This document shows positions 36,848 to 64,000 of a stretch of DNA of 64,000 bases, in pieces. How positions within the stretch are numbered: position 1 is the first letter of the stretch; every line of letters starts with the position of its first letter. This DNA is from Bacteroidia bacterium (GTDB taxonomy: Bacteria > Bacteroidota > Bacteroidia > NS11-12g > UBA9320), in NCBI GenBank assembly GCA_020053795.1, contig JAGVMN010000006.1:1192-65191 (forward strand), written 5' to 3'. The translations under genes were made by a program, and so were the position numbers. A model generated the notes under the pieces. The model did not search any database, was not told the DNA's origin, and saw nothing but the letters and a program-made list of their open reading frames with translations.

Positions 36848-37809
36848 AGACGCATCGTGCTGGTTTTTAAATCGTCAACTACTTCGAGCAGGTAAACCCC
36901 CGGCAGCATAGGTGCAGAAATGAAATTGGTTTCTATTTTGTTTATCTGACTCACCAACCTGCCATGAAGGTCGAAAACACGTATAATACTTTCAGGTTCT
37001 TTCTTTTTCAATGTGATTTTCTCACCAGCCAAAACAGGATTTGGATAGGCAATACCATCTGTTGCAAAAGCCTCATCTATTCCGGAATAACCGGGCGATA
37101 AAATTGCCAAAGCATCCAGATCGAACCCACCGGTAGCAAATGCTGTCGGCCATGGGTCGTTAATTTTTCTGCCTTTGGAATCTCTGCTGCTATAGCGGTA
37201 ATCCAAACTTCCGACGACATCAGTTATTCGGATGTATTTGACATTTGATTTATTCAGCAAAACGGTATCCGGAATTTCAGCCAGATCGAAGGGGGTACCA
37301 TAGAACACCTGATGCTTGCCGGCAAGATTTTTTATTTTTTCGGGATTTAATTCCGATGAATTGGTGAATTGTAAGGTGGTGTCATGGAGGCTTTCGGTTT
37401 CAAATCCGAAATAATTAATTCCGTCAGAACTCACTTCAACAAATCCAAACTCCAGGAAATAGGCCGTGCTTGCCTTGAATCCATTCTCAAAAACAGCGAA
37501 CTCAGGTCCGATCAAATCTTTCAAAGGTTCGGTCACTGTAATAATAGCCGAACCACGGTCGCCGAGGCTGACAGCTATTCCATCGGCGATGCCCAAAGCA
37601 CTTGATGGCGTGCCATTGGTTGGCTTGCCCAGACCGGTGTCGGCCATATTTTGCCAACCTCTTTTCACTTCAATATTTGTTGTCCAACCCTTTATTTTAC
37701 CGTTGGTATAGTGTATGGCTTTGGAACCTGTGAGTCCTCCTGCCGGATCGAACTGAGCTTGGGCAGTTGAAAACCAAACGAAAAGCGAAATAAACAGATG
37801 GACTCTCAT
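36835..37809 (-). CDS. secreted protein of unknown function with T9SS type A C-terminal sorting domain
   Basis: Signal peptide MRVHLFISLFVWFSTAQAQ. The C-terminal ~80 aa (AYPNPVLAGEKITL...VFDLHGRLV...PGVYLLEVVDD..STMRLCVY) match the Por secretion tail pattern. There is a 4-nt overlap with the upstream gene. Confidence 0.6.
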   Translation of the reverse strand: MRVHLFISLFVWFSTAQAQFDPAGGLTGSKAIHYTNGKIKGWTTNIEVKRGWQNMADTGLGKPTNGTPSSALGIADGIAVSLGDRGSAIITVTEPLKDLIGPEFAVFENGFKASTAYFLEFGFVEVSSDGINYFGFETESLHDTTLQFTNSSELNPEKIKNLAGKHQVFYGTPFDLAEIPDTVLLNKSNVKYIRITDVVGSLDYRYSSRDSKGRKINDPWPTAFATGGFDLDALAILSPGYSGIDEAFATDGIAYPNPVLAGEKITLKKKEPESIIRVFDLHGRLVSQINKIETNFISAPMLPGVYLLEVVDDLKTSTMRLCVY

Positions 37810-47400: not shown

Positions 47401-48086
47401 GGCGGATCTGGAATAGACCCTGCCTGGGTAGGCAGACCACCTTGATAGGGCAATGCCATTCGATACACCAATAAATCACCATCAGGGTCGTAGGCAGAGT
47501 TAAGGATATTCGTTGTGTCTTTCACACACATATATGGTGACGGTACACCCGAGAATGCAGGGGAACTATTTTTGATATTGGTTGGGGGGATGTTGCAAGT
47601 AAATGTTTGGCCTTGGTAAGGTTGTCCGTTTGGACCATTGGAATTAAGGTTGTTCTGAATATTACGACAACAACGAACAAAAGTAAGACGATAGCCATAA
47701 GAACTTGAAGGCAAGTCAATCTCCCTTTCATAAAATCCTTGCTCAATACAAACATTTTTAGCGTAATAATCACAAGTAATACTTCCGGGTGGATCAACTT
47801 TTCGCCTGACTAATAATTTGAAGGTTAAGGTCTGATTTATTGATTTCTTCGCGTTGTTGTTATAAACTCCTATCTTAATTTCATTGTCAAACTCCACTGT
47901 GCTTTGTAAGCAATCTCTGAAAATGTTCAGAGTTACTTTGTAACGATACATACCGTTTGAAGTAGTTGTCAGATATTGATAGCTCATATAACCACCAACC
48001 AAATGGGTTGCCGAGGCCTCAGAAGCAATAAATAGAACATACCCCAGAAGGAAGTTTCTAAAAGTTATGTTAACGATTTTTCTCAA
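44469..48086 (-). CDS. giant adhesin with gliding-motility/CHU_C (T9SS type B) C-terminal sorting domain
   Basis: The N-terminal ATHLVGGYMSYQYL motif is typical of this family. Multiple Ig-like modules follow (..G..Y.W.V.GG........I.V.WG..G.G.V.V.E....GC..). The C-terminus is FIPNAFTPNADNVNEGF...FNRWGEKVYST...WDGLY. Confidence 0.85.
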   Translation of the reverse strand: MRKIVNITFRNFLLGYVLFIASEASATHLVGGYMSYQYLTTTSNGMYRYKVTLNIFRDCLQSTVEFDNEIKIGVYNNNAKKSINQTLTFKLLVRRKVDPPGSITCDYYAKNVCIEQGFYEREIDLPSSSYGYRLTFVRCCRNIQNNLNSNGPNGQPYQGQTFTCNIPPTNIKNSSPAFSGVPSPYMCVKDTTNILNSAYDPDGDLLVYRMALPYQGGLPTQAGSIPDPPANLKLPIDPVIYNSGFNEYSPFGMGGVATVDPNNGLTQLYSQNVGSYVIAIEVTEYRNGIELSRIRLDLQILVLQCEPNNKPKISGSSYNYEVEAGAPLCFDITGSDIDNDNVTLKGKGDIFTGANGFIPPLASLPTTTGTGTTVSQFCWQPSCSQFSSKPYLFTAEVWDNGCPPKFENKNFSILVKPFIGADGIFGPDRLCNYSKNNLYIAQRASAGSTFEWIVTGGVIQGSAKGSSVFVMWNQSGAGSIAVTEISRFGCRGQTSNKVITILSSPPKPVISGLDTVCELESGVQYSVFNNAGSSYWWSANGGTSGGSSNNLFKVDWGFKGTGIVKAVETGSNGCPSDTAIYFVDIRKPYPAISGNPSVCPNIKGIIYKTTYTSGSIYIWQVTGGTQVGGGNTNQISVNWGDAGVGGVFVTETDRFGCMSDLVTLNVFIDYTLAGSKPMGKTSVCEFDQGVPYTVLKTEGSVHYWIINGGNQASGDSSNLISVNWGANGSGRVGVQERSFDSVNNRVCSSPFIYLNVTINPLPVANTIIGPVDFCQSEDSMSYTLNGFAGSTYIWTLAGKNDTIFGQGTKTIKLVMNKPGTYLLSVIEITKDSCPGKLLDTIIYVRPKPTTTGIFGDFVICHPNILKIPYSVSGFQNSTFNWSVTNGNILYGRGTDSILIDFDDVVDAYIKMVEISEFNCKGDTLELPVYINKLIIEMKVVSVGYPDNYMVVQWQTPGNPAISYPFELDRRPEGTLVWNKIASIDGSLRSYIDKPLNTDKNPFEYQVRGTDLCGNLRNTQTHTNILLSGSISEVDLSLTINFTPYLGWQNGVDYYEIYRRVNNESDFTYQSNYDPSTRIRFENNVSVFTECYRVKAYEIEGNKAVSWSNEICYNYEPNVFIPNAFTPNADNVNEGFGVVSIAVNQFEMNIFNRWGEKVYSTLDLYSKWDGLYLDKPAQQDVYIYTVRFTDYRNRPYYKSGTVHLMR

Positions 48087-50580: not shown

Positions 50581-50654
50581 GGCGGGGTAGCTCAGATGGT
50601 TAGAGCGTAGGATTCATAACCCTAAGGTCGGCAGTTCGATTCTGCTCCCCGCTA
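50581..50654 (+). tRNA. tRNA with CAT anticodon (Met, or Ile2 if lysidine-modified); no encoded CCA
   Basis: Cloverleaf: acceptor GGCGGGG/CCCCGCT (G1-U72 wobble), D arm GCTC-AGATGGTTA-GAGC, anticodon loop TTCATAA, T arm GGCAG-TTCGATT-CTGCT. Distinguishing Met from Ile2 needs tRNAscan or identity rules. Confidence 0.88.
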
Positions 50655-50821
50655 CTTCTGCAAAGGTTAATCAATAAAGACTTTCATGAATTTTTGTATT
50701 TCAAATGTTCTGTTTAGATACAACATAGGTACAACAAATAGAACTTTTCCTGTTTCATGTTTGAATCTTTCACTCCTGTGGAAACAATCACGGTAATGCT
50801 TTTTATGGATAAAAACCTTCT

Positions 50822-51215
50822 TTAACAAAACCTACTCTTTGCTTGAGAGGAAGAATCACATGATGAAATGGGGTCTGTTGCCGACACAGTATAATGTAAC
50901 ACTACAGATTTTTCGTCGGCCGGCCCGGGTTGTATCACCTGCACATTGTATGATGTGTAGTTGGTTATCCAGCCCATATCGTAGCTGTTCACGGTCATGT
51001 TTCGCTGATAAAGTACGGCATCGTCCTGTATCAATCCAATTCTGCTGCTGCCATAGAGGTGCAGTTCGTTCAGCTTCAGCCGCTCTATCACATCGTTATT
51101 GCCCAGTTCTTCGCAGGTCATGGTGTAGGTGGCCATCAGGTTGCCACCCGCGTCGCGAATATACCATGTTGTTGTGACAGTTGATGATACGGTAACCTTT
51201 TCTTGATCCGTTGTC
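50822..51215 (-). pseudogene. Rhs/YD-repeat remnant (5'- and 3'-truncated)
   Basis: It encodes ..TWYIRDAGGNL-MATYTMTCEELGNNDVIERLKLNELHLYGSSRIGLIQDDAVLYQRNMTVNSYD.., about 90% identical to the start of the 472-aa toxin ORF. After ..QPGPADEKS it runs into 27 unrelated codons and a stop. The frame opens just after a TAA, so there is no upstream Rhs shell. Confidence 0.7.
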
Positions 51216-51269
51216 CGGAACCATTATTGGCAATGGTCAAGGTTGGAGAAAAACACCAACCTTTGGGCA
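50907..51269. repeat. direct repeat copy 1 (363 bp)
   Basis: It aligns without indels to 58417-58779. I count 27 mismatches (~93% identity) and the last 31 nt are identical. Confidence 0.9.
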
Positions 51270-51922
51270 GAGAAATACCCATTATTGTTCTACAACCTGA
51301 GCAATTGAATTTCCTGATCAATAACGAGCCATTTCAGAATTCTTTACCCGGGTTTTTAAAAAGGACTAAAGACTTTTTTGTTTTTGGTTGCACCGTTGGT
51401 TTGCGGGTGAGTGATATGAAAGCTTTGAAAAAAAGCAATCTTGAGATCGCAGATAATAACTGGTACTTGAAAGTTCACTCAAAAAAGACCGGTAAATTCA
51501 CCAAAATCAAATTGCCCGAATATGCTATTGATATCATAAAGAGAAACCAAAACAGGAGCACTTTTTTGTTTCCTCCAAAGAGTAATGTAAATTTGAACAA
51601 GCATATTCAAACAATCATGGCAATGGCCGGTTGGGACCATACATTTACCAAAACAAGAATGCGTAGAGACAAACCGGTAGAAATATACAAGAATGCTCAA
51701 AAAAGAGAGCATTACCGCTTTTGCGATTTGGTGACTACTCACACTATGCGAAGAACGGCTATTACCACGTTATTGAGTCTGGGAATTGACGAACCTTCTG
51801 TGCGAAAAATAAGCGGACATGCACCAGGGAGTGTTGAGTTTTATAAGTACGTGAAATTCCACCAACAAAACCTCGATGAAAAGACCGATCTGGCATTCGA
51901 AAAATTGACCAAAATGAGCTAA
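51233..51922 (+). CDS. compact tyrosine site-specific recombinase (catalytic domain only, ~229 aa)
   Basis: The catalytic residues occur in order: R (GLRVSD), HxxR (HTMRRTAIT), GH (ISGHAP), Y (VEFYKYV). The track ORF begins at TTG 51203; the first ATG is at 51233. There is no N-terminal SAM/arm-binding domain, so it is either FimB/FimE-sized or a 5'-truncated integrase. Confidence 0.75.
   Translation: MVKVGEKHQPLGREIPIIVLQPEQLNFLINNEPFQNSLPGFLKRTKDFFVFGCTVGLRVSDMKALKKSNLEIADNNWYLKVHSKKTGKFTKIKLPEYAIDIIKRNQNRSTFLFPPKSNVNLNKHIQTIMAMAGWDHTFTKTRMRRDKPVEIYKNAQKREHYRFCDLVTTHTMRRTAITTLLSLGIDEPSVRKISGHAPGSVEFYKYVKFHQQNLDEKTDLAFEKLTKMS
51239..51263. other. 8-9-8 inverted repeat AAGGTTGG-agaaaaaca-CCAACCTT, candidate tyrosine-recombinase core site (copy 1)
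   Basis: The arms are perfect 8-bp inverted repeats with a 9-nt asymmetric spacer. The site lies 6 nt from the point where the two repeat copies diverge and covers codons 3-11 of the recombinase ORF. Confidence 0.35.
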
Positions 51923-51933
51923 AAAAGTAAAAA

Positions 51934-52980
51934 ATGGTCAATTTAAGACATAGCTCAAATTCCTATCATCAGTGCATAAACCTGAGTTCGGATTACTATC
52001 CTTTCGGGATGAACATGCCAGGCCGATCTTATTCAGGCTCTGCCTATAAATACGGGTTTAACGGACAGGAGCAGGATGACGAAGTTTCGGGGACTGGGAA
52101 TAGCTACACGGCTGAATTTTGGCAGTATGATAGTAGGTTGGGGAGAAGATTTAATACGGATCCTGTAGTAATAGCTTATTTAAGCCCCTACAATTGCTTC
52201 CAAAATAGCCCTATTGAGTATAGTGACCCCGATGGCGATTTTGTCGTTGCCGGAATAGTTGGATTTTTTAAAGGTGCATTTAGAAAGAGTAGTAAACGTG
52301 AGTTTGAAGGCGGTTGGTTTAAAGAGGCCAGGAACGAGAGTGTTCGGCATATGGCAAATTCTATTAATATTTATGCTGGAATATTTGCAGTGGATAGGAG
52401 AAGAGGATTTTTTCATGGCGTCTATCAGATATTGTCAAGGTTGACATGGGAATTGCCTCAAACAATCTATTCCCTTATATACGCTCAAAGCTTCAACATA
52501 TTCGGACATGTTCATAAAGTAGGTTATCAGAGTGGAGCCACCTACCTGTATGCTCCTGATTCACGAGGTCCTTATATGGTTGGAAATGTAATTATTGGAC
52601 AAGATGCAACTGGTGAGGTTGGAGACCTGACTCAGCAGTATTGGCAAGGAAAACAGCGAAACAGCAGGATTCTTGGACCCCTTTATTTTATACACGAAAT
52701 GTTAGAAGGACGGGAGTGGCTTCTTAATCGCATTGGTCCAATCCGTGAATGGATTGATAAGTCAGGTTTTATTGTTTCTGGTAAGGTTCAAGGTTTTAGG
52801 TATAAAGGAGCAAGAGTTCAGGCAGGTCTTTTTACATATAACGACATTGCAAGAATGTCAAGAGCAAGGTATCATATTATTATTCATAGGCGTATTAATC
52901 AGGACGGTACGGTTTATGGTTATTACCGAGATGCACTGTTCTTAAAAAACCGTAGGATAATGAGAGTTGGGCACAAATAG
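51934..52980 (+). CDS. orphan Rhs C-terminal fragment: end of Rhs core + unassigned ~245-aa toxin domain
   Basis: A stop lies 1 codon upstream of the ATG. The core end DYYPFGMNMPGRSYSGSAYKYGFNGQEQDDEVSGTGNSYTAEFWQYDSRLGRRFNTDP...YSDPDGDF (DPxG-type demarcation) is followed by unrelated sequence. Confidence 0.75.
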   Translation: MVNLRHSSNSYHQCINLSSDYYPFGMNMPGRSYSGSAYKYGFNGQEQDDEVSGTGNSYTAEFWQYDSRLGRRFNTDPVVIAYLSPYNCFQNSPIEYSDPDGDFVVAGIVGFFKGAFRKSSKREFEGGWFKEARNESVRHMANSINIYAGIFAVDRRRGFFHGVYQILSRLTWELPQTIYSLIYAQSFNIFGHVHKVGYQSGATYLYAPDSRGPYMVGNVIIGQDATGEVGDLTQQYWQGKQRNSRILGPLYFIHEMLEGREWLLNRIGPIREWIDKSGFIVSGKVQGFRYKGARVQAGLFTYNDIARMSRARYHIIIHRRINQDGTVYGYYRDALFLKNRRIMRVGHK

Positions 52981-52988
52981 CAATAAAC

Positions 52989-53711
52989 ATGAGAAAATGC
53001 GAACTAAGCATATTGACCTTGTTATTGGTTGTTGGGTGCCATCCAATTAACTCAGGAATATTTGTTACAAACCAACTCACTCAACCAATTGTAATAGAGT
53101 ATCATGCGTTTAACGGCAAATATTTTGTGGGTATTGACAAGGAATATTCCAGAAAGGATAAAGATGCCGGTTTGCTTTACAATCCATTGCTCTGCAATAG
53201 ATGTGAAATAATTCACAAAGGAGATTCAAAAGTAATCGTAATCCTGCCCCCAAAGGATAGTGTTATTATTTCTGGTTCAAAAACAAGTTACCATTATCCA
53301 GGAGATGTTTTAGTGATAGGTGAAATGAAAGTATATTCTTTAGAATCAGACCAGAACTATCCTGCGGGATTTGAAATTTTGAATCACCTTGAACCTTTTG
53401 GAAACAATAAAATTATTTCTATTGATAGTTCCAATTTTAAAACAATTTCCATTCCAGACAGTTTTAATTACCCTTGTATGAGAATTAATAAAGGCATTCT
53501 GGACACTAATAACTCTTATTTCACAGATGTAACCTTCTGTAGACTTGAAAATGACAGCATACGATTCACAGAATATGCAAGTTGGATAAGGATGAGAACG
53601 AATGTTAATTATAGAGTTTATCATGAGTATTATTATCAGATGCAAAGAGATGCTTGGGTAGAAATTTTCCCACATGAGCCAAGAAAAATTATGGTTCCTA
53701 AAAGACCTTAG
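52989..53711 (+). CDS. putative cognate immunity protein (lipoprotein)
   Basis: It starts 8 nt after the toxin stop and has a signal peptide with a Cys (LTLLLVVGCHP). The sequence is AT-rich and I recognised no family. The role is inferred from position. Confidence 0.5.
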   Translation: MRKCELSILTLLLVVGCHPINSGIFVTNQLTQPIVIEYHAFNGKYFVGIDKEYSRKDKDAGLLYNPLLCNRCEIIHKGDSKVIVILPPKDSVIISGSKTSYHYPGDVLVIGEMKVYSLESDQNYPAGFEILNHLEPFGNNKIISIDSSNFKTISIPDSFNYPCMRINKGILDTNNSYFTDVTFCRLENDSIRFTEYASWIRMRTNVNYRVYHEYYYQMQRDAWVEIFPHEPRKIMVPKRP

Positions 53712-53864
53712 CTCAAGCCATTCTGCTTAATTTACATGTACAAGTGTAATTCGCTCCGCCAAGCGAACAATTCTCAAGACAGCTGGGGGCAGTACTTTTC
53801 TATCAAAACAGTATCACATTCCTTAAATAATTTTCCTATCTTGCCTCCTTAAATTCTCATCGGT

Positions 53865-56519
53865 ATGAACTCTAAACTTACACTGATTATCGGTCTCTCA
53901 TTTTTTCTATTTATTCCATTTTCTGAGGCCCAAACCAATATAAACGGCGGCAATGTATCCGGCACTTGGACCAAGGCAGGAAGCCCGTACCTGGTGAAAG
54001 GAGACATTACCATACCCAATGACTCTACGCTGAACATTGGTGTGGGGGTAATTGTAGATTTTAAAGGAACCTATACCCTCAGAGTACAAGGCCGGATATT
54101 GGCCATTGGCAAAAGTGGGGATTCAGTGGTTTTTACTGCCGCTGCCTCCAACTGGCGAGGCATCCGTTTTGAGCGAACACCAAAGACCAATGACACCTCA
54201 CGGTTTGAGTACTGCATTATAGAAAAAAGCAATGTTGAGGGATTATCTGATACACTAAAACGTGGTGGCGGATTGTATATACAGGAATTTTCGAAAGTGG
54301 TGATAGAGAATAGTCAGATAAGAAACAACAAGGCCACTCATGGGGCGGGCATCTACCTTACTGGGAAATTAAACGAATTAAGTAGACTGAGGATTAGTAA
54401 CTCACAAATTATAAGGAATGCTTCTTACCAAGGTGGTGGTGGTTTTTTTGTTAATTATTATGGTCAACTGGACATATACAACTGTGATATTTCGAATAAT
54501 GCTTGTACTGACTATAAAGGAGGGGGAGTTTACCTTTCATACAACTCTGTTCTCAATATGGACAATTGTCGCATTGAAAAGAATATACTTATGAATCAAG
54601 TAGGAGGAGATGGAGCAGGACTTGATATTGAATATTACTCCGAAGGGAAAATCAGGAATTGTTTGATAAGAGAAAATTCAGCAGGAGGCTCAGGTGCTGT
54701 AAATATTGAAGAATACTGTCATCTAAGTTTTGAAAATTGCTTAATTTCAGGCAATCAAAGCACATTTAAGAGTAAAGCACCTAAAGGAACTGGCGTTGTC
54801 ATTTACAAGTTCTGCGATGTGATATTCCATAATTGTGACATTGTAAATAACACCAAAAATGCCTTTCCATCCACTTCAGTGGCAGTTTCTATATCTACTG
54901 GTTGCAATCCTATTTTTACCAACTGTAGAATCATGAACAACACAGGAATCGGAATCACCTTCAATGATTTCTCAACTACTAAAATGATAAATTGTATTCT
55001 AGCCAATAATGGGGGTGCAGATGGTATCAATTCTCAAACTGATTTTTATAACTGTGTTTTCGCCAACAATGTCGAAACTGAAATTGACGGAAGTGGTTTT
55101 ATTATTAGCAGTAATTGCAATTTCTATAATTGTATTTTCACCGGAAGCAGAGATAAAAACAATCAAAAGACTCAGATTGCAATTTACTCTTTGAGTGCCA
55201 AACCCAACTTCTACAATTGCATCATTGATGGAGATAGTGCAGGGTTTATCGGTATTGGGGCTCATGGGAACTTTAAAGGGGTTTACATCAACAATATGGA
55301 CGTTGACCCACAGTTTGTAAATCCCACTGTCGGGGCAGGGCCGTCCTTTGACGCCACCAAAGCAGACTGGAGCCTTAAAAATACCTGCATTGGTGTTTCC
55401 CCGGCTCTCAACAGGGGTACCATACAATTCGCTGGAGGGTTTAAGTTACCTGCAACTGATTTTGCCGGAAGTCCCAGAGTTTCGGCGGATACCGTTGATA
55501 TTGGGCCTTACGAAATTCAATACCCTAAAGACCGCATCAGCAAAAAGCCAAATGTCGGGGCTTTCACCGGTTTATGCGAAGCAAGTGACACGACATTGCG
55601 ACTGAATATGCAAGCCTCCAATCCTGTTTGGGAATGGCAACGAAGCACCAATCAGGGCAACAACTGGACATTTTATAGTGTTTCATCGGATTTGTCTCTA
55701 AAAGGAGTGAAAGCCCAGGACAGCAATCTGTACTATCGGGCTCTTATTACAGCAGATTGCGGATTGAAAGACACCTTTCAAACGGTCTTGAAAGTGTTCC
55801 TTCCTGCACCGCTTGATCTGGGTGCTGATACAGCATCTTGTTCAGGAAAAACTGTAACCCTGCAAAACAAGTATGCCCCTGTTTTAGGAAATGTTTATTT
55901 GTGGAGTAACAGCCAGCCTTCACAAAGCATACAGGTAACACCACCACAAGCCACCAAATATTCCCTGAAAATCACAACGCCGGATGGCTGTATCTCCCTC
56001 GACAGCTTATGGGTAAAGGTTGGCAATAACCCTGTTGTTTTCATAGGTAATGACACGTCTATTTATCTGACAGAATCATTGTTGTTAAAAGCTCCTATTG
56101 GACACCCCCGCTATCTTTGGAGCGACAACAGCAACAAGAATACCCTCACCCTGAATGGTGCTTCCCTAGGAAAAGGGCAATACAATGTTTGGGTATTGGT
56201 GCATGACAGCATCGGTTGCAGTGCCTCGGACACGCTGAACCTGACTGTGAAAAACGTAGGAATCACATACCTCGGACTTCCGGCATTTATTTCCATCTAT
56301 CCCAATCCGGCAAAGGAAAAGCTGATGATTGATCTTTCGGGTTATCAGGGTTCCGAATCGCTTGCGATCACTCTGCGAGACCTCAACGGGTCGGCGTTGC
56401 AAACCTGGGAGTTGACGAATTCTGCGGAAATTGATCTTTCTTCAATTTCAAAAGGGTTGTACCTTTTTGAAGTTAAGACTTCAGAGGGGAGTGGTTTTAG
56501 CAGGTTGGTGGTGGAGTAA
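53865..56519 (+). CDS. right-handed parallel beta-helix repeat protein with Ig-like modules and T9SS type A C-terminal sorting domain
   Basis: Signal peptide MNSKLTLIIGLSFFLFIPFSEAQ. About 12 PbH1-like turns are present (NSQIRNNKATHGAGIY, NCDISNNACTDYKGGGVY, NCLIRENSAGGSGAV, NCRIMNNTGIGI, NCILANNGGADGI ...). The C-terminal tail is IYPNPAKEKLMIDL...LRDLNGSAL...KGLYLFEVKT. Confidence 0.8.
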   Translation: MNSKLTLIIGLSFFLFIPFSEAQTNINGGNVSGTWTKAGSPYLVKGDITIPNDSTLNIGVGVIVDFKGTYTLRVQGRILAIGKSGDSVVFTAAASNWRGIRFERTPKTNDTSRFEYCIIEKSNVEGLSDTLKRGGGLYIQEFSKVVIENSQIRNNKATHGAGIYLTGKLNELSRLRISNSQIIRNASYQGGGGFFVNYYGQLDIYNCDISNNACTDYKGGGVYLSYNSVLNMDNCRIEKNILMNQVGGDGAGLDIEYYSEGKIRNCLIRENSAGGSGAVNIEEYCHLSFENCLISGNQSTFKSKAPKGTGVVIYKFCDVIFHNCDIVNNTKNAFPSTSVAVSISTGCNPIFTNCRIMNNTGIGITFNDFSTTKMINCILANNGGADGINSQTDFYNCVFANNVETEIDGSGFIISSNCNFYNCIFTGSRDKNNQKTQIAIYSLSAKPNFYNCIIDGDSAGFIGIGAHGNFKGVYINNMDVDPQFVNPTVGAGPSFDATKADWSLKNTCIGVSPALNRGTIQFAGGFKLPATDFAGSPRVSADTVDIGPYEIQYPKDRISKKPNVGAFTGLCEASDTTLRLNMQASNPVWEWQRSTNQGNNWTFYSVSSDLSLKGVKAQDSNLYYRALITADCGLKDTFQTVLKVFLPAPLDLGADTASCSGKTVTLQNKYAPVLGNVYLWSNSQPSQSIQVTPPQATKYSLKITTPDGCISLDSLWVKVGNNPVVFIGNDTSIYLTESLLLKAPIGHPRYLWSDNSNKNTLTLNGASLGKGQYNVWVLVHDSIGCSASDTLNLTVKNVGITYLGLPAFISIYPNPAKEKLMIDLSGYQGSESLAITLRDLNGSALQTWELTNSAEIDLSSISKGLYLFEVKTSEGSGFSRLVVE

Positions 56520-56584
56520 AACTCATACTTGATGTATTCCTTTTTACACATTTAAGGGAGTTACAAGGACAACAAAAAGGTTGG

Positions 56585-57244
56585 CTAAAATCGAAAAACA
56601 CCTAGTTTGTTTCTCAGTTTTAGATCATTATCAAGTAACCAATTAAATCTTTCTTTCCAATAATCGTTGACCAATAATTTATATTTGTTTAATAATTCAA
56701 ACTCGTCTGATTTCGCTTGATCTTGAACTATCAAATCAAGAATTATGATTGAACATTCAATCCAAGAATCTGGGTTAAATTTGAAAATATATTCTTTTAA
56801 TTTCTGAAGGGAATTCAGTGATTCAACTACTCTCAAGAGTTCTACAACATCAGCCATGAGTTTCGTCAGGGTTTTATTATCTAGCCCAATATCACTATTC
56901 AACCCATAATAGAAACTCCTTTTTAACATCCTCTGACCGTCAATTAAACAAATCCGATTATTCAGTGAAATTTTCTCTTTGACCTTCTGACTATACAATT
57001 TAGAAGAAACCTCCGTAATTATTCCAAAGGAAAGCGAAAACTGAAGATCTATGTCAGAGGAGCTTTTATAATTTATTTCAAGATCAGAATATAAATAAAC
57101 CTCATTGACCCTCTTAAATAAGCCTTTGCCTTTTTTTGAAAAGCCAAGTTCTGTTAGAAAAGCTGAATATCTTTTCTTGACTTTCAAGAATTCGATTTTA
57201 AGTTCATTCATTGAATTCTGGGATTTTTTTTCAATAAAGTTCAT
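56585..57244 (-). CDS. putative cognate immunity protein (cytoplasmic)
   Basis: ATG 57244 overlaps the toxin stop by 14 nt (the track start GTG 57289 is also possible). It has no signal peptide and is very AT-rich: the two 60-nt lines I counted are 18% and 32% GC. Confidence 0.5.
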   Translation of the reverse strand: MNFIEKKSQNSMNELKIEFLKVKKRYSAFLTELGFSKKGKGLFKRVNEVYLYSDLEINYKSSSDIDLQFSLSFGIITEVSSKLYSQKVKEKISLNNRICLIDGQRMLKRSFYYGLNSDIGLDNKTLTKLMADVVELLRVVESLNSLQKLKEYIFKFNPDSWIECSIIILDLIVQDQAKSDEFELLNKYKLLVNDYWKERFNWLLDNDLKLRNKLGVFRF

Positions 57245-58649
57245 CTGATAAATCCCATTTATTCTGTTGCCAATCTTCCCAATCTTCACGGAACTGTTCC
57301 TTGCTTTCCTCTGTCATTTCCCTTGTTTCAATGAGCTTTTCAGTTGTAAAACTACCTACACTTATTGACTGTCCTGGTAACAACAATTGCTTGGGGTCTG
57401 AGATACCATTAATATCCATTAGTTCTTGAACAGTCATACTATGTTTTGCTGCAATTGACCACAAGCAGTCACCTTGTTTTATATTATATTTCAGGGAATA
57501 TTGTGAATACTCAGTCGTATAAGTGATATCATATTTATATTCTCCAATTTGAACATTTTTGACCACACCTACGTTAGTAACTACAGGTCTATAGAGCCAA
57601 ATCTCAACTTCCCAATTTCTTACCTCTGGATAGTATTTTTGTGCTTCTTGAAGATATTCGGCAGCATCTTTTAATCCATTTTTCAACCCATTTCTTGTTG
57701 CTGATTTCCATTCACCAATTTTGCCCCATTTGTTCTCTGGTATTATTCGTGAGCCATCAGGTCTTAATTTACTTCCTCTTCCAATTGATTGATTAAATTT
57801 ATCAAATTGGCCCTCTGATTCGGCAATTTTATCTACAATTTTATGGTTATCTTTTCCTGATTGAGTAAGTCGTTTAAAATTATCAGATTTAGAGAGTTCT
57901 TTAACCCAACTAACTCTCTTTAATCCTGTTCGGACTGTTCGAACTGTAATTTTAAGAACTGTCTCTCCGGTTGCTATGACGGGATTTGAAGATACTAATA
58001 TAGGAACCATTCTTGGCAGGAATTCTGACCCTTCTAAATCAATTCCAGAAATCGGGCAATTTTCAGCAAACGCAAATGGCGAACTATGAGGATAATTTTT
58101 CCCTATTGGGTCAACGGATAAGAAGCGTCCTAACCTTGGGTCATACATTCTGAAAGTAAAGTTGTAGCTATTTCCTTCCCCTTTTATTTCATTATCTTTT
58201 TCAACTCCTCCAAACCCGTACCTATAGCCAGTGCTGGTATAAGAGCGGGCTTGCATGGTCATCCCAAAAGGATAGTAATCCGTGAAGCTCATATACTCTA
58301 CTTCGAAGTAGTCTATGGTGCCGCTGTTGTTATGGCTTATCTTGCGGTCGGTGATCACCGCCAGCACATTGCCGAGGTGGTTGCTGAGTTCGTATCGCTT
58401 ATACCCTCTGAACTGTGATTTTTCGTCGGCAGGCCCAAGTTGTATCACCTGCACATTGTATTCGGTGTAACTGGTTATCCAACCCTGATCATAGCTGTTC
58501 ACGGTCATGTTTCGCTGGTAGAGCACGGCATCATCCTGTATCAACCCTATTCTGCTGCTGCCATAGAGGTGCAGTTCGTTCAGATTCAGCCGCTCTATCA
58601 CATCGTTATTGCCCAGTTCTTCGCAGGTCATGGTGTAGGTGGCCATCAC
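57231..58649 (-). CDS. orphan Rhs fragment: ~125 aa of YD-repeat + core end + C-terminal toxin region with PD-(D/E)xK-like motif and a LysM domain
   Basis: GTG/ATG start inside a YD repeat. The core end is DYYPFGMTMQARSYTSTGYRYGFGGVEKDNEIKGEGNSYNFTFRMYDPRLGRFLSVDP...GIDLEGSE. Then comes ..ESEGQ..KLRPDGSRIIPENKWGKIGEWKS.. (E..PD..ExK spacing). LysM-like segment: YNIKQGDCLWSIAAKHSMTVQELMDINGISDPKQLLLPGQSISV. Confidence 0.75.
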   Translation of the reverse strand: MMATYTMTCEELGNNDVIERLNLNELHLYGSSRIGLIQDDAVLYQRNMTVNSYDQGWITSYTEYNVQVIQLGPADEKSQFRGYKRYELSNHLGNVLAVITDRKISHNNSGTIDYFEVEYMSFTDYYPFGMTMQARSYTSTGYRYGFGGVEKDNEIKGEGNSYNFTFRMYDPRLGRFLSVDPIGKNYPHSSPFAFAENCPISGIDLEGSEFLPRMVPILVSSNPVIATGETVLKITVRTVRTGLKRVSWVKELSKSDNFKRLTQSGKDNHKIVDKIAESEGQFDKFNQSIGRGSKLRPDGSRIIPENKWGKIGEWKSATRNGLKNGLKDAAEYLQEAQKYYPEVRNWEVEIWLYRPVVTNVGVVKNVQIGEYKYDITYTTEYSQYSLKYNIKQGDCLWSIAAKHSMTVQELMDINGISDPKQLLLPGQSISVGSFTTEKLIETREMTEESKEQFREDWEDWQQNKWDLSDELY

Positions 58650-58779
58650 ATTGCCGCCCGCGTCGCGAATATACCATGTTGATGTGACAGTTGATGATAC
58701 GGTAACCTTTTCTTGATCCGATGTCAGGAACCATTATTGGTAATGGTTAAGGTTGGAGAAAAACACCAACCTTTGGGCA
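58417..58779. repeat. direct repeat copy 2 (363 bp)
   Basis: See copy 1; the offset is exactly 7,510 nt. It contains the recombinase ATG plus 12 codons, then reads KCW-stop (stub 58743-58790). Confidence 0.9.
58749..58773. other. 8-9-8 inverted repeat AAGGTTGG-agaaaaaca-CCAACCTT, candidate recombinase core site (copy 2)
   Basis: Identical to the site at 51239-51263, and sequence identity with copy 1 ends 6 nt further on. Confidence 0.35.
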
Positions 58780-58808
58780 AGTGCTGGTGAAAAGCATGTT
58801 CAGCGGGG

Positions 58809-59276
58809 CTATCCTTTTAAACCAAGGCTTTCGAAAAAATTATTCAATCTACTGCTTAGTATAATTAGTTTTTCTCTTGGTACATTCCAAATCCAAAATC
58901 CAAATATTGTCGCACAAATCCCTAAAACAAGTGCAAGCCATTTATTCAACCAATCAGGATCATCATTCAAAATAATTGTTCTTTCTATATTTTTGGGATC
59001 GAACCAAAAAGCGACTTTATCCATTGGCTTAAAGGAGACCTCATTTAGTAACTTATTAAAAGTATAGGTACTGTCTTTATAGCTGCATTCTATTACATGA
59101 AGATTGGAGTTAGGAGCATCTGATACAGGTGTGCTTTCAACCTTAATAACTATACCTTGTACCAATACTCCTTTACTTTTAATCATTATTCGATTACTTA
59201 AGGTTATAATGAAAACACCAAACATAAAGAATCCAAAAGGAAATAATATTAATGATACTACTTTTTGAATATTCAT
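58809..59276 (-). CDS. putative immunity protein, two-TM membrane protein (DUF3592-like topology)
   Basis: ATGA start/stop overlap with the upstream toxin gene. An N-terminal TM helix (VVSLILFPFGFFMFGVFIITL), a beta-rich middle and a second TM helix (WLALVLGICATIFGFWIW) make up the protein. Confidence 0.55.
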   Translation of the reverse strand: MNIQKVVSLILFPFGFFMFGVFIITLSNRIMIKSKGVLVQGIVIKVESTPVSDAPNSNLHVIECSYKDSTYTFNKLLNEVSFKPMDKVAFWFDPKNIERTIILNDDPDWLNKWLALVLGICATIFGFWIWNVPREKLIILSSRLNNFFESLGLKG

Positions 59277-60412
59277 TGTCCAACTGTCGCTTGACCAGTG
59301 GTAAATCTCAATGTGTATTTTTTGGCTAACTGTGCATCCACAGATGATTTACCTGATCTCATAAGACCTTTTGAAAGGTCAAGGCTTGCATCCAAAATTG
59401 GACCAACTCTATATTGCGTACTTTGCGATGATAAATTCTGACTAAAAGTTCCACCCAATCCCATTCCTCCATTGAGAAATTTTGTACTTGATTCAAAATA
59501 GTTAGAATTCTCTCGAGCACCACTCAATTCGGTTTGGGGAAGTGCTTTTGAATTAAGAAAAGCATAGGCTTGACCTGTTAAACCTACTTTATACCAATCA
59601 TTCACTGAGAATGTAACACCACCATCTTTCCCTTTTGCAGACCCTACTAAACTAAAATCAATTTGAAAATTAATACCACCCGAATGCTCATCATTACCAA
59701 ATAACTCGAGTTTTGCTGATAGTGCAAAAATCCCCAATTGACCTTTACCTTGAACTCCTAATCCACCGCTTCCTGCTTCTATACCAACTCTATAAAGTCT
59801 GTTATAAGCATCATCCATTTTTTGACCGATAATATTCAACCATGGCATTGGTTCCCATACATCGGCCTTGTACTTATAATTTTTTACTTTATGATCATAA
59901 TAAGTCATATTCCCTTCAACACGTTTCTTGTCAAACACCAAATCATGTTTAATGTATTTGTGTAGAGTTCCGTAACCTCTGTCTTTGGGTGGATCAAAGG
60001 TTTTAATAATTGTTTTATGCTTCCCACCAACATTGTCAAAATAATGTGTCACTTCTTTATCTTCTAATCCGTCAAGATCAATTGCCCAAATAGGTTTGTT
60101 TCCGGCAAATTGATATGGAGTAAACCACGGATAATCCATTGTAATAGGGTCTTCACTTAAAAACTTACCTGTTCTCGGATTGTAAATCCTAAAACCATAA
60201 TCCTGATTTCCAGTTTCCTCATCCGTCTCTTTTCCGTTGAAAGAATACCTATAGCCACTGCTGGAATAAGATCGTGCCTGGATGGTCATCCCAAAGGGAT
60301 AGCCGGAAAAGGTCATATTTTGAGAGGGTAAATTCACCTTATCAAAGGTAATTTTGTTTTTAACATTTGCCAGTATACCAGATAAACATCTGGGCAATCT
60401 GTACTTCGACAT
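59273..60412 (-). CDS. orphan Rhs C-terminal fragment: core end + unassigned Gly-rich beta-type toxin domain
   Basis: Core end GYPFGMTIQARSYSSSGYRYSFNGKETDEETGNQDYGFRIYNPRTGKFLSEDP...AIDLDGLE, followed by ~290 aa of unrelated sequence ending in Gly/Ser-rich alternating segments. Confidence 0.75.
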   Translation of the reverse strand: MSKYRLPRCLSGILANVKNKITFDKVNLPSQNMTFSGYPFGMTIQARSYSSSGYRYSFNGKETDEETGNQDYGFRIYNPRTGKFLSEDPITMDYPWFTPYQFAGNKPIWAIDLDGLEDKEVTHYFDNVGGKHKTIIKTFDPPKDRGYGTLHKYIKHDLVFDKKRVEGNMTYYDHKVKNYKYKADVWEPMPWLNIIGQKMDDAYNRLYRVGIEAGSGGLGVQGKGQLGIFALSAKLELFGNDEHSGGINFQIDFSLVGSAKGKDGGVTFSVNDWYKVGLTGQAYAFLNSKALPQTELSGARENSNYFESSTKFLNGGMGLGGTFSQNLSSQSTQYRVGPILDASLDLSKGLMRSGKSSVDAQLAKKYTLRFTTGQATVGQ

Positions 60413-60537
60413 GCCCTGCAGAAACTGTACAACAGCTTTTTATATACTTGATCTTCTGATTGTTAATTTTCTTCTGTTGTAAATCAAAATCAATTTGCAA
60501 AATCGCTGGAAACATGTCAAAGAGCGGGCAGAAAAAA

Positions 60538-61014
60538 TCACTCGATTTTCCCTGAATCGTCAAACGCATCTAATATCCTCTGCTTAATTAGATGGATAAA
60601 AAGCGGAGAAATTTTAATACAGCCGGTAATATATCTTAGAAGCAAACTGCTGAATTCAGATGTTTCTAATATCCCGAAATTATAAAATTCTGTTACGATT
60701 TTAAAAAGTAGAATTATCAGGTATACTAAGGCAAAGAACAAATACAGGTCTAATGAAATAGAATCGGTCACCATAATTAAGAATAATCCAACAACAGCCA
60801 TCAAAAAAATGGTTGGATGAATCCACCAATTATCAGAGTCAATTAATGATACTAACAAGACGTAGAATGAAAGTAGTGAAAACGTTATTAAGATTCCACC
60901 GATCTCAAAGGAACCAAATAAAAATGAAAAAAATGTAAACAACAATATATATGCATAGCGATTTTTATTAAGCACCATTTGCAAAATTTTAACCCTTATA
61001 TTCTTACTTGTCAT
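60538..61014 (-). CDS. putative immunity protein, polytopic (4-5 TM) membrane protein
   Basis: It has an 11-nt overlap with the upstream toxin stop (ATGACAAGTAA) and is almost entirely hydrophobic helices. Confidence 0.55.
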   Translation of the reverse strand: MTSKNIRVKILQMVLNKNRYAYILLFTFFSFLFGSFEIGGILITFSLLSFYVLLVSLIDSDNWWIHPTIFLMAVVGLFLIMVTDSISLDLYLFFALVYLIILLFKIVTEFYNFGILETSEFSSLLLRYITGCIKISPLFIHLIKQRILDAFDDSGKIE

Positions 61015-62140
61015 AATACTCTATTCCGATGAATCTATTAATTGAACCAGAAGCCATTATTGCTCCTCCAACCCCAAACTGAATTCCAATTGATTTTGCA
61101 AGTCGTGTGGTGTAATTTGGATTGGTGTTGGTTATCCTCGACAAACCAATTGCTGTTATTCTATACTCTGTATTTTGGTCACTAATTTTATCGTTAGTCA
61201 ACATTGGAGCTAAATTATAAGTATGATCAACCGAACCTCCTATAAATACAAAATCAGTACTGGCTCCGTGGGTAATTTGAAGCTGATTTAACCCATTTTC
61301 CGTCCCATCAACAATTATTCCAGACCTTTCTATTATTGTTGGTTTCGTTGAATTAAATTCTTTAATTTTTATTTTAGAATAATAATCAACAGAGCCAAGG
61401 TTTGCATCAGCTGATATACCAAAAGCTCCCTTAATATGTCCTCCAAATCTAAGGCCAAGTGTTACTTTGCTTTCATTTCTCGAAACCCATCTCGCTTTAT
61501 CTAAAAACTGCTTTCTTGTGACAATTGTAGAAAAAAGGTTAACTTGTTTTTTTATTTCACTGCCTTCTTCTTTTACATCAATTGTTTCAGAGTATCCTTC
61601 TGTTTTTGTTCCTTCAACATCAGCATATTCTCTGCCCTTGCTATTTGTTTTTATCGTAATATCAACTTCAAATCCTTGCTCCTGAAGTTTCCATGCTTCT
61701 TTATTTGCGGTATGCTTATAAGAATCACCTTTCACCCATCTTGCAAACCTTTTAAAAGCATACCCGAGATTTCTTTTATCAGGTGGCTCAAGACCAAGTG
61801 GATCAATGAAGATCAATGGATTATTATACATCGAAGCATAAGGGCTTTCCCAAGGTTTAAAAATTAAATCGTGACTAAACCATCTACCAATCCTTACATC
61901 AAGTTGCCTGTAGTCAGTTGTGTAAGAATTTCCGTCTCCACTTACTTCATCATCTTTGGCCATTCCATTATATCCAAACCTATAGCCACTGCTGGTATAA
62001 GATCGGGCCTGGATGGTCATCCCAAAGGGATAATTTGATAAACTACTATTTACGGGAGAATGCTTCACAAAGCGAAGATATGTCATCTTTGACCATTTTG
62101 CTTTGAAAAAGCAAATCCGAGAGCTATCGGATTCAACCAT
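61004..62140 (-). CDS. orphan Rhs C-terminal fragment: core end + unassigned Gly-rich beta-type toxin domain
   Basis: The frame opens only 16 codons upstream of the ATG (after a TAG). Core end NYPFGMTIQARSYTSSGYRFGYNGMAKDDEVSGDGNSYTTDYRQLDVRIGRWFSHD...FIDPLGLE, followed by ~265 aa of unrelated sequence. Confidence 0.75.
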   Translation of the reverse strand: MVESDSSRICFFKAKWSKMTYLRFVKHSPVNSSLSNYPFGMTIQARSYTSSGYRFGYNGMAKDDEVSGDGNSYTTDYRQLDVRIGRWFSHDLIFKPWESPYASMYNNPLIFIDPLGLEPPDKRNLGYAFKRFARWVKGDSYKHTANKEAWKLQEQGFEVDITIKTNSKGREYADVEGTKTEGYSETIDVKEEGSEIKKQVNLFSTIVTRKQFLDKARWVSRNESKVTLGLRFGGHIKGAFGISADANLGSVDYYSKIKIKEFNSTKPTIIERSGIIVDGTENGLNQLQITHGASTDFVFIGGSVDHTYNLAPMLTNDKISDQNTEYRITAIGLSRITNTNPNYTTRLAKSIGIQFGVGGAIMASGSINRFIGIEYYDK

Positions 62141-62325: not shown

Positions 62326-63741
62326 CTACTCAACTTTTTCAAACGCCCCTGCATCCGGCTTGCTGTCTCTATTTCTGTCGGCAAAATCAGAGTTAATTGG
62401 CGGGTTTAATAAAATACCTATGTCTTTTGCTCCTGAAAGCGTATCGAGCCTAAAATCGTTTTCTTTGTAATTGATAAATCTGGGGTCTTTGTTTCTGACA
62501 TTACCTGCTTTATCCAATTCAGTTATAGTGGAACGGAGGAGACTTCCTCTTATATACACAGTGTCTTTAAGAGGCTGCAAGTCAGAACCAAGTTCATCAT
62601 TGAGACTACCATAGATGATGCAGTTTTGGATGATACATTTAATATTGAATGTATTTATGATCCTGAATAAATCATCCCGTAAAATGTTGGTAAAAAAAAA
62701 TGTCGGTTCCTTGCGGCTAAAGGTATTTTCGTAAGTGGCAAAGGTGCAATGCACCAAAGTATAATCACCGCCATATTCACCAAAAAACGTATACCTCCCG
62801 CAATTAACAAATAGGCTGTTTTCCGCGTAAATCGTAGTTCCCCGTCCGGCAAGACCATCGAAAAGCATGTTTCGAACAAAGCAATTCTTCACCGTTACGT
62901 TAGTCCGCGAACTAATCTGCGGAGACCGGCACCATATACCAACCAAACCATTTTTGAAGTAAGCATAGGAAATTTCATTCCCCACCGATGGCGTGTCAAT
63001 TAATATCCCGTTCCATTGCCCGGCTACTTCCTCGTATTGGGGTTGCAGGCGGTCGCCTTCCATCATCACAGGTGCATTAACTGTACCTTTGACCTTTAAA
63101 GTTCCCTGTACATACAACCAACTATAAGGGGCAAAATAAACCTTAACACCTTCTTCTATGGTGAAAGTACAGCCCTCGGGAACAAAGATATAATCATGCA
63201 CCACATAAGGTTTCAGCTTATCACTCCAAGTCACATTGCAAAGGGTATCATTCAGGAAATAATGGGCATCCTGCCCCCAGGCAATCAGTTTGACATCCTG
63301 CACATTTCCGTTCGTATTGAATATCATGGAATCCCGGACTATTAATGGGTTGTTCGTATTATTGGGGTTGATGGTTACCTCAACAAAAATGAAAATGCTG
63401 TCACCTCCTCTGATATATATGTTTTCAAATTTCCGACCAGGCTCTCCATCCACATTGAGTCTAAAATAGGAATTGGAGCCGCCACCAAGTATGATATCCG
63501 TTTCAACGGCATTTTTATTCGGATTCACCACAACTATTTGTTTGTTGACGGACATCGGAACACCGGGTACCTGGTTATGAGCTGTGAAAACCGTATCAAA
63601 AAAGAGCGTGTCAATGGTTATTTTCAATTTGTCACTACCACTCATGCTCAATTTGTCCTTGCGACAACCGGGTTCTATTACTATGAATCCCAAAACTGAA
63701 AGAAGACCGAACCAGAATTTGAAGCTTCTACCAGTACGCAT
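62326..63741 (-). CDS. hypothetical lipoprotein with beta-helix-like repeats
   Basis: The start was moved to MRTGRSFKFWFGLLSVLGFIVIEPGCRKD (lipobox-like). Internal motifs of PbH1 flavour occur (VKNCFVRNMLFDG, NSLFVNCGRY, IQNCIIYGS). It is not Rhs-related. Confidence 0.55.
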   Translation of the reverse strand: MRTGRSFKFWFGLLSVLGFIVIEPGCRKDKLSMSGSDKLKITIDTLFFDTVFTAHNQVPGVPMSVNKQIVVVNPNKNAVETDIILGGGSNSYFRLNVDGEPGRKFENIYIRGGDSIFIFVEVTINPNNTNNPLIVRDSMIFNTNGNVQDVKLIAWGQDAHYFLNDTLCNVTWSDKLKPYVVHDYIFVPEGCTFTIEEGVKVYFAPYSWLYVQGTLKVKGTVNAPVMMEGDRLQPQYEEVAGQWNGILIDTPSVGNEISYAYFKNGLVGIWCRSPQISSRTNVTVKNCFVRNMLFDGLAGRGTTIYAENSLFVNCGRYTFFGEYGGDYTLVHCTFATYENTFSRKEPTFFFTNILRDDLFRIINTFNIKCIIQNCIIYGSLNDELGSDLQPLKDTVYIRGSLLRSTITELDKAGNVRNKDPRFINYKENDFRLDTLSGAKDIGILLNPPINSDFADRNRDSKPDAGAFEKVE

Positions 63742-64000
63742 AAGTCGCAAAAGTAATAATATCATAACAGCACTAGCTCACTTCGACTATAAATAGTTGT
63801 TAGTTTGTAAAGGAGTCCCCTTATGTATAAAAGAAATAGGAGGGTTGTCGGTGATTGAATGAGTTGTTTTTGCAAGTGATTGGAATAGTGAAAGGACTTG
63901 TAAAAACACTCATTAAAGAAGCCGAAAGATATTTCGTTTAGATCAGCAAGTACTCTTGTGTGTGGTGCTTTTGGTGGGTTGAATGAAATATCAGGAAGGA

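Follow-up and report, generated by a model that had tools for sequence, protein, structure and literature searches.

We analyzed a 64,000-nt stretch (hereafter, the window) of contig JAGVMN010000006.1 from a Bacteroidia bacterium (GTDB lineage Bacteria; Bacteroidota; Bacteroidia; NS11-12g; UBA9320; assembly GCA_020053795.1), and focused on positions 50,581 to 62,140, where four short genes with the end of an Rhs core are each paired with a small gene and accompanied by the remnant of a tyrosine recombinase gene. The four open reading frames (ORFs) are located at 51934-52980 on the plus strand (hereafter, CT1) and, on the minus strand, at 57231-58649 (CT2, part of a cassette spanning 57231-58780), 59273-60412 (CT3) and 61004-62140 (CT4). 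The first-pass annotation, made from the sequence alone, had recognized a conserved Rhs core end in these four ORFs and proposed a profile search as the refuting test. TIGR03696 (NCBIfam Rhs_assc_core, cutoff 32.5 bits) matched all four above the cutoff, with 34.5, 48.7, 58.9 and 33.7 bits for CT1 to CT4, respectively, and a core-end hidden Markov model found exactly four copies in the window. The YPFGM motif begins 20, 124, 37 and 36 codons into CT1, CT2, CT3 and CT4, in agreement with the earlier estimate that the ORFs start ~10-125 codons ahead of the core end. A DPxG-like boundary is present in all four ~80 residues past YPFGM (SDPDGDF, IDLEGSE, IDLDGLE and IDPLGLE), again as annotated. 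The N-terminal 80-100 residues match the C-terminal plug of solved Rhs/TccC shells (YenC2, TccC3, RHS2 and Tse5). Past the core end, each ORF continues into a toxin domain of 244-262 aa (244 aa in CT1, 261 aa in CT3 and 260 aa in CT4), and the domains do not align with one another. A kinship of CT3 and CT4 was hinted at by a MAFFT alignment and was rejected, the BLASTP E value of this best pair of the four being 0.05 and not significant.

Each toxin ORF is tightly coupled to a small ORF. These putative immunity genes are imm1 (52989-53711, plus strand; 33.6% guanine-cytosine (GC) content; function assigned from position only), imm2 (56585-57289, minus strand; 30.2% GC; likely start at ATG 57244 or later), imm3 (58809-59276, minus strand; 30.3% GC) and imm4 (60538-61014, minus strand; 30.6% GC). 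An 8-nt gap separates CT1 from imm1, and cassettes 2, 3 and 4 have overlaps of 14, 4 and 11 nt, matching the spacing described before; the 14-nt overlap assumes ATG 57244 as the start of imm2, and the first GTG would give a 59-nt overlap. The RHS repeat (PF05593) had no Pfam match in CT1-CT4 or in the 19 other window ORFs of at least 327 aa, and a tblastn search with Rhs N-terminal parts detected core sequence upstream of the core end solely at 58278-58676 and 50963-51217. The four genes are cassettes and not Rhs proteins, because the RHS-repeat shell is missing and ~165 (58278-58780) and ~120 (50907-51270) core codons are what is left. The earlier statement that the window has no shell, PAAR or VgrG gene thus holds for a full-length rhs; for PAAR and VgrG, no Pfam match was found in the same 19 ORFs of at least 327 aa, a scan that shorter ORFs fall outside (PAAR is ~100 aa). 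We conclude that CT1-CT4 are almost certainly 5'-truncated Rhs C-terminal toxin and immunity cassettes.

The starts of the cassettes were compared at the nucleotide level. Three of the four (not CT2) share a sharp boundary a few nt ahead of the YPFGM codons. Mutual identity among the window cassettes begins 3-11 nt ahead of the Pro codon, as in the intact loci described below, and the homology of CT1, CT3 and CT4 from that point spans 12-55 nt at 88-96% identity. The cassette-site motif TATCCYTTYGGGATGA occurs exactly four times in the window, once on the plus strand and three times on the minus strand, against 0.03 expected occurrences. It was found at 51997-52012 (plus strand, cassette 1; TATCCTTTCGGGATGA) and at 58259-58274, 60286-60301 and 62017-62032 (minus strand, cassettes 2, 3 and 4).

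Absent from the first-pass annotation were the recombinase remnant and a fifth core fragment, the latter being one copy of a 364-nt direct repeat (hereafter, D1). The tyrosine recombinase remnant is located at 51272-51922 on the plus strand (ORF 51203-51922; PF00589, E=1e-11). It has lost ~135 N-terminal codons and kept the catalytic R, HxxR, H and Y residues, and it is 71% identical to a 354-aa homologue (P0126) from residue 139 on. Its homologues are ~355 aa long, and the alignment to them starts at their residue ~136-139, which corresponds to nt 51272 and to the boundary of D1; the missing N-terminal part was found nowhere else in the window. After the recombinase stop codon, the start codon of CT1 comes at a distance of 12 nt and its YYPFGM codons at 72 nt, the latter in line with the 73-272 nt of 51 related loci. 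The two copies of D1, at 50907-51270 and 58417-58780 (both minus strand), share ~92% identity and encode Rhs core sequence (WYIRDAGGN...LHLYGSSRIG). Copy 1 is the fifth core fragment, a dead one with no toxin, which continues ..ADEKS and diverges ~90 codons ahead of YPFGM. Copy 2 is the upstream part of CT2. Both copies carry an identical stop codon and frameshift just upstream of the ORF start. The CT2 cassette retains ~165 core codons ahead of YPFGM, with 58650-58780 degraded by the stop and frameshift, and looks like the stump, itself duplicated, of a once longer rhs. The duplicated, frameshifted core fragment marks illegitimate rearrangements in the window.

To place the remnant, one genome per species (GTDB representatives) was searched with the recombinase alignment alone as the query. 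Of the 348 relatives obtained, 79 genome loci were retrieved together with flanks of at most 10 kb, and 80 metagenome loci formed a second, independent set that went through the same procedure. The profile used to scan all loci for core ends was derived from the window sequences plus a few homologues, and a gene was counted as full-length rhs if the core end lay at least 300 residues into the ORF (ORFs of ~690 to >3100 aa, most of them cut by the locus or contig edge). The related loci belong to Chitinophagales, Flavobacteriales, Cytophagales and others. An Rhs core end was present in 64 of the 79 genome loci and in 63 of the 80 metagenome loci. A co-directional cassette follows the recombinase stop codon by 73-272 nt in 22 genome and 29 metagenome loci, and a divergent cassette has its site 102-277 nt before the recombinase start in another 19 and 18, respectively. 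A full-length rhs was in reach in 22 genome and 7 metagenome loci, with at least one cassette inverted relative to it in 20 of the 22 and 6 of the 7 (26 of 29 overall). Two full-length genes were inspected, and both have DUF6443 and RHS repeats. In nearly all cassettes, only 1-40 codons of the stop-to-stop frame precede the Rhs homology, and several cassettes are silent on their own because a stop codon directly precedes the site.

The window locus thus very probably belongs to a family of recombinase-associated Rhs cassettes. The order of core fragment, recombinase and CT1 in the window is aberrant for this family, because none of the 159 related loci has cassettes flanking the recombinase on both sides. 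The closest relative of CT2 (P0002, 52% identity) lies on a 10-kb contig (L001) with the order recombinase (46% identity), CT2 homologue, imm2 homologue, then two more short Rhs toxin/immunity pairs. The 3' ORF after the CT2 homologue is 49% identical to imm2, so CT2 and imm2 are co-conserved there, at 60% and 49% identity, respectively, their homologues standing side by side. This contig is the only other locus with a CT2-type toxin. Its recombinase (315-1157) is cut at the C-terminus by a long Rhs core fragment (1249-2958), mirroring the N-terminal loss in the window. Apart from CT2 and imm2, the toxins and immunity proteins of the window had no relative in the 80 genome loci (L001-L080).

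The survey also bears on the tRNA gene beside the array. A tRNA-Met (CAT) was predicted by ARAGORN at 50581-50655 on the plus strand, to the left of the locus as previously annotated. The recombinase gene begins ~620 nt from the 3' end of this tRNA, and the immunity genes are low in GC, which would fit the remnant of an integrative island with the recombinase as its integrase and the Rhs cassettes as its cargo. However, the final 21 or 30 nt of the tRNA recur nowhere else in the window (with up to 3 mismatches allowed), any tRNA lies within 10 kb in 6 of 60 related loci (within ~1 kb in 2), and the fixed neighbour of the recombinase is the Rhs core-end site and not a tRNA. With neither an att-like repeat in the window nor a tRNA association in the family, the island reading was rejected as highly improbable. 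The array had been described as parked next to the tRNA, and this adjacency looks incidental.

The sequence shared between full-length rhs and cassettes forms long inverted repeats. The inverted repeat that links the full-length rhs, at its core end, with the inverted cassette, at its 5' end, ranks as the longest of the entire 21-kb locus in L024 (78 nt, 100% identity), L020 (124 nt, 88%) and L050 (100 nt, 88%), and as the third longest in L048 (40 nt, 98%). Across 33 pairs of full-length genes and cassettes, identity sets in at a median of 7 nt before the Pro codon of YPFGM and runs for 12-161 nt (median 61).

Four pairs of near-identical contigs (99.3-100%) differ by an inversion or a cassette exchange at this repeat; the members of a pair come from different assemblies and not from one clone. 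In three of the four, the crossover is confined to 18-30 nt that include the YPFGM codons. The first pair, a 1.5-Mb contig of a metagenome-assembled genome (MAG; L055) and a metagenome contig (L134), is 99.3% identical over 5 kb, and one toxin (CT_a) is fused to the full-length rhs in the former and joined to the recombinase-side leader in the latter. Single-nucleotide polymorphisms place the switch inside TTACTATCCCTTTGGGATGATACAACCTGG (30 nt), despite a 63-nt identical run further on, and the leader provides an ATG two codons ahead of YYPFGM. The second pair (L064 and L068) is 99.99% identical over 11.2 kb and has one leader followed by different cassettes, with a common segment of merely 22 nt, ATCCGTTTGGGATGTTGATGCC. 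The third pair, from sister samples (L118 and L126), differs by a 3.6-kb inverted block, with the exchange inside TCCTTTGGGATGCTGATG (18 nt). In the fourth comparison, L018 against L101 and L102, an inverted block of 100% identity lies beside a direct block at 99.4% (16.7 kb against L101 and 12.0 kb against L102), and the boundary is the end of the core-end block. One lineage, represented by L118 (2359-3582) and L126 (67-1290, 5874-7181 and 7778-9097), has a ~70-aa insertion between (S/P)FGM and YRYGFNG, and its recombination boundary is still at the FGM codons.

Codon usage at the site is biased. Across 183 distinct cassettes of the genome and metagenome loci (L001-L160), which are not independent samples, the otherwise rare Gly codon GGG is used in 57% at the site versus 16% in the same ORFs, the Pro codons CCG and CCC in 60% versus 35%, and the Phe codon TTC in 49% versus 28%. 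The stretch TAT-CCC-TTT-GGG-ATG holds an ATCCC/GGGAT dyad, which may possibly be the core site of the recombinase.

The first-pass annotation had compared the array with orphan or displaced rhs-CT modules of Enterobacteria. Orphan rhs-CT/rhsI and cdiA-CT/cdiI modules have reportedly been described there. In Enterobacteria, the orphans follow the main rhs in the same direction, retain core parts of variable length and are reactivated by homologous recombination or amplification. Like them, the cassettes here are 5'-truncated, keep the core end, carry a variable, putative toxin domain with a putative immunity gene and would form a reservoir of toxin tips, and this part of the comparison stands. 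As a full account, the array would consist of former tips, displaced by horizontally acquired ones, kept for immunity and rarely re-fused by RecA, with the recombinase as debris. The ~165 core codons on CT2 would permit homologous recombination, D1 shows a past homology-driven or illegitimate rearrangement at the locus, and short Rhs-core proteins (370-770 aa) are very common in Bacteroidota genomes. However, most cassettes here, unlike the enterobacterial orphans, start at the fixed YPFGM point, with no core upstream of it and a common sharp boundary in three of the four in the window, and the related loci have mostly inverted cassettes (26 of the 29 loci with a full-length rhs) and a dedicated tyrosine recombinase. 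This recombinase family, searched without reference to Rhs, abuts cassettes at fixed spacing in 88 of the 159 loci, and the crossovers fall within 18-30 nt even where longer identical runs exist. The model of displaced, co-directional modules moved by homologous recombination does not fit, because of the sharp common boundary, the abutting recombinase and the inverted cassettes of related loci, and we regard it as unlikely.

Low-GC arrays headed by a tyrosine recombinase are known from Bacteroidota as rAID-1, with a 5' tyrosine recombinase, at least two co-directional low-GC genes and repeated intergenic motifs (10.1101/471110; PMC12247911), and XerC/D genes have been noted beside polyimmunity loci (Zhang et al. 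2012). The window resembles rAID-1 in that a tyrosine recombinase heads a low-GC array of short genes tied to interbacterial toxins, with repeats between the genes. It could accordingly be read as an integron-like defence array, in which foreign cassettes were captured singly, immunity was selected and the toxins are hitch-hiking remnants that were never deployed. The recombinase followed by co-directional CT1 and imm1, the immunity genes of 30-34% GC and three loci with purely co-directional cassettes behind the recombinase (L069, L089 and L143) all suit such an array. However, rAID-1 as described consists of co-oriented orphan immunity genes, with no toxins, no linked rhs and no inversion proposed, whereas each unit here has a complete toxin domain of 244-262 aa and an intact core end, the repeat is the Rhs core end itself, and in 29 loci a full-length rhs belongs to the locus and shares the repeat. 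The published criteria are a recombinase with at least 44% identity to BF9343_RS08045 and at least two downstream orphan immunity genes with a GC content of at most 41% (10.1101/471110); in the window, the first co-directional gene is a complete toxin cassette, and the core part of CT1 has 43.6% GC. Recombinase relatives with >50% identity were reported to be restricted to Bacteroidales (Ross et al. 2019, 10.1101/471110), unlike the loci here. Taken as the whole explanation, a captured defence array appears quite improbable. The co-directional arrays nevertheless suggest that the recombinase may, in addition, insert or excise cassettes in the way of integrons and rAID-1.

The related loci have the anatomy of a shufflon, because a constant giant 5' gene, opposite 3' cassettes, repeats at the boundaries and an adjacent recombinase come together with crossovers of 18-30 nt, and site-specific inversion at the YPFGM-coding sequence is the most economical mechanism. 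In an intact locus, a giant rhs (DUF6443 and RHS repeats, >2000 aa) ends in one toxin and immunity unit, with at least one further toxin/immunity cassette nearby, mostly in the opposite orientation. Each cassette begins at the DNA for the conserved Y-P-F-G-M of the Rhs core end, and the gene for a dedicated Xer-like tyrosine recombinase (~355 aa) lies ~75-280 nt from one of the sites. Inversion between the rhs site and an inverted cassette site would exchange the toxin carried by the Rhs shell. Every immunity gene would stay in the locus in either orientation, and differently armed siblings could thereby coexist. That the inversion is driven by the adjacent recombinase is a likely mechanism. 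The inverted repeats, the natural recombinants, the codon bias at the site and the association of recombinase and cassettes with its geometry were all observed; we infer that this recombinase catalyzes the exchange, that the exchange is reversible within a clone and that the immunity genes of silent cassettes are expressed.

For the window, we consider it probable that the region is a degenerate member of this recombinase-associated, shufflon-like Rhs cassette system, which is common in Bacteroidota. Repeats in both orientations are present, whereas the constant 5' part of rhs, seen in 29 related loci, is absent, so the window can at most contain a remnant or a satellite copy. With no main rhs, a recombinase without its N-terminal part and a rearranged core, the local copy can most likely no longer switch alone, and the balance tilts towards its being inactive. 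It would then survive as a reserve of silent toxins and immunity genes; alternatively, it would be a satellite store served by a complete rhs and recombinase at another place in the genome.

Several points weigh against the shufflon-like reading. Inversion within one clone is putative, and RecA-dependent recombination between the repeats may be an alternative route. The recombinase could instead capture or excise cassettes in the manner of an integron integrase, and the co-directional arrays of L069, L089 and L143 have no full-length rhs within 10 kb. The recombinase is not tied to known invertases, since it matches Xer models only below threshold and had no relative among solved structures. 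The window itself has neither a full-length rhs nor an intact recombinase, and just 2.2 kb of the 66-kb contig lies outside it; an exact 26-mer from D1 had no match in collections of genome and metagenome contigs. Finally, assemblers can mis-orient segments between long inverted repeats, although the crossovers of 18-30 nt make this less likely here.

Assembly behaviour matters for the window as well, given that the sequence comes from a 66-kb metagenome-derived contig and that Rhs repeats and inverted repeats often break or scramble assemblies. Four whole contigs of 4.4-10.8 kb (L028, L036, L061 and L158) have inverted core ends precisely at both termini and the recombinase gene between them. 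They represent a third architecture, with the recombinase gene as part of the invertible segment, and suggest that these loci systematically break assemblies; assemblers yield such ends at invertible segments, yet any inverted repeat can have this effect. The four window cassettes could in this way be the 3' ends of intact rhs genes that were collapsed or mis-joined. However, CT1, CT3 and CT4 are immediately preceded by unique sequence with stop codons in every frame, every cassette abuts the preceding immunity gene or the recombinase, and the short-cassette architecture is also present in complete chromosomes and contigs of 0.25-3.2 Mb (L024, L048, L055, L069 and L078). An artefact of assembly is hence the least credible of the explanations, and extremely unlikely.

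The toxin domains and their partners were characterized individually. CT2 matched LysM (E=4e-12) and, weakly and under the cutoff, Tox-REase-9 (E=0.002), and its homologues P0003, P0004 and P0087 are annotated with both PF15650 (Tox-REase-9) and PF01476 (LysM). The order of Tox-REase-9 followed by a C-terminal, peptidoglycan-binding LysM (57231-58030 in the window) recurs, including in a long Rhs protein of a Paludibacteraceae MAG, and a LysM domain is unexpected on a presumed cytoplasmic nuclease toxin. The toxin parts of CT1, CT3 and CT4 had no Pfam, NCBIfam or PDB sequence match. CT3 had no relative besides itself among 5.8 billion proteins, which made an alignment impossible, and its AF2 single-sequence model was unusable (pLDDT 33). 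For CT4, just three other representatives (332-419 aa) were found among 1.84 billion, matching at or near their C-terminal end. The toxin domains of CT3 (59276-60058) and CT4 (61007-61786) are glycine-rich, and their neighbours are predicted membrane proteins.

Among the immunity candidates, imm1 has one N-terminal hydrophobic segment with a lipoprotein-like signal (LLLVVGC) and had no Pfam or NCBIfam family match. Based on hydropathy, imm2 has no hydrophobic segment, imm3 has two predicted membrane segments and imm4 at least four. The nature of these proteins may hint at the targets of the toxins, with a predicted soluble imm2 as the partner of the REase-like CT2, a candidate nuclease; CT1, CT3 and CT4, whose partners are lipoprotein or membrane candidates, might act on the membrane or the envelope.

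The array had been described as AT-rich. This applies to the immunity genes (30.2-33.6% GC), the only ones with values under 35.4%, the 5th percentile of 700-nt windows; the cassette region as a whole has 38.3% GC versus 39.3% for the window. The uvrA gene, for one line of which ~50% GC had been given, measured 42.2%. Between the convergent cassettes lies a gene (53865-56519, plus strand; PF13229 and PF18962; 42.3% GC) whose beta-helix product carries a C-terminal sorting domain for type IX secretion, and which is probably a passenger. Type IX sorting domains (CHU_C/Por_Secre_tail) occur on four large proteins of the window (3052-7374, 37806-39422, 44469-48086 and 53865-56519). Together with the source organisms of all close homologues, these domains place the window in Bacteroidota, as the first-pass annotation had done. 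Directly upstream of the minus-strand array, 62326-63765 encodes a 479-aa predicted lipoprotein with no Pfam family and no relative in the genome loci L001-L080. The flanks of the window showed no synteny with the related loci, including L026, which has its own tRNA-Met.

A close parallel in anatomy is the R64/IncI shufflon, in which the tyrosine recombinase Rci acts with sfx repeats to switch the C-terminus of PilV (PMC5430464, PMC11852207). It and the related loci have a constant 5' part, alternative 3' segments, opposed short repeats and a recombinase beside a multi-cassette array. Unlike in R64, the target here is a polymorphic antibacterial toxin with linked immunity genes and not a pilus adhesin, and the repeat lies inside a conserved coding motif of the Rhs core. 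The likeness is one of anatomy as read from the sequence. The proposed system also resembles the shufflons of phase-variable type I restriction hsdS genes and further programmed inversions that alter genes (Milman et al. 2023, PMC9881135) in that an intragenic inversion exchanges specificity-determining 3' parts; in most such systems, a recombinase is encoded next to the gene and the inverted repeats are intragenic. They differ from it in cargo, which here includes immunity genes that need continued expression. Rhs and toxin families are absent from the main text of that survey (PMC9881135), and Rhs and toxins likewise from the main text of a study on intragenic invertons (PMC10028968). Full-text literature searches, whose coverage lacks most subscription journals, turned up no account of Rhs toxins being switched through inversion or by a tyrosine recombinase, and the proposed shufflon-type programmed inversion of a polymorphic toxin is apparently undescribed.

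This system bears on the open question of how orphan toxin cassettes are mobilized by the bacteria that store them. To our knowledge, the only documented route for such cassettes is rare homologous recombination. It is somewhat more likely than not that YPFGM-coding DNA is the crossover site of a dedicated, so far unnamed clade of Xer-like tyrosine recombinases and serves as a programmed toxin shufflon in hundreds of Bacteroidota species. If so, the clade would act at a defined site of ~15-30 bp inside a coding motif, and the combination of recombinase and YPFGM repeat would serve as an annotation rule. The many short Bacteroidota genes labelled 'RHS repeat-associated core' would then count as silent shufflon cassettes and not as evolutionary debris, which would explain their abundance. 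The reading of the window would shift accordingly, from parked orphans of the enterobacterial type to a decayed or satellite copy of an inversion system, of which cultured Flavobacteriia and Cytophagia carry intact loci. Candidate carriers are Seonamhaeicola aphaedonensis CECT 8487 (L059), Aquimarina rubra KCTC 52274 (L072), Flavobacterium beibuense F44-8 (L041), Flavobacterium sp. C4GT6 (L036), Xanthocytophaga flavus NT2B1 (L014) and Algibacter sp. 2305UL17-15 (L066). A clone with an intact locus would continuously yield subpopulations with different Rhs toxins while every immunity gene is kept, and the diversification of toxins would be a programmed, reversible form of population-level bet-hedging, comparable to the shufflons of pili and restriction specificity.

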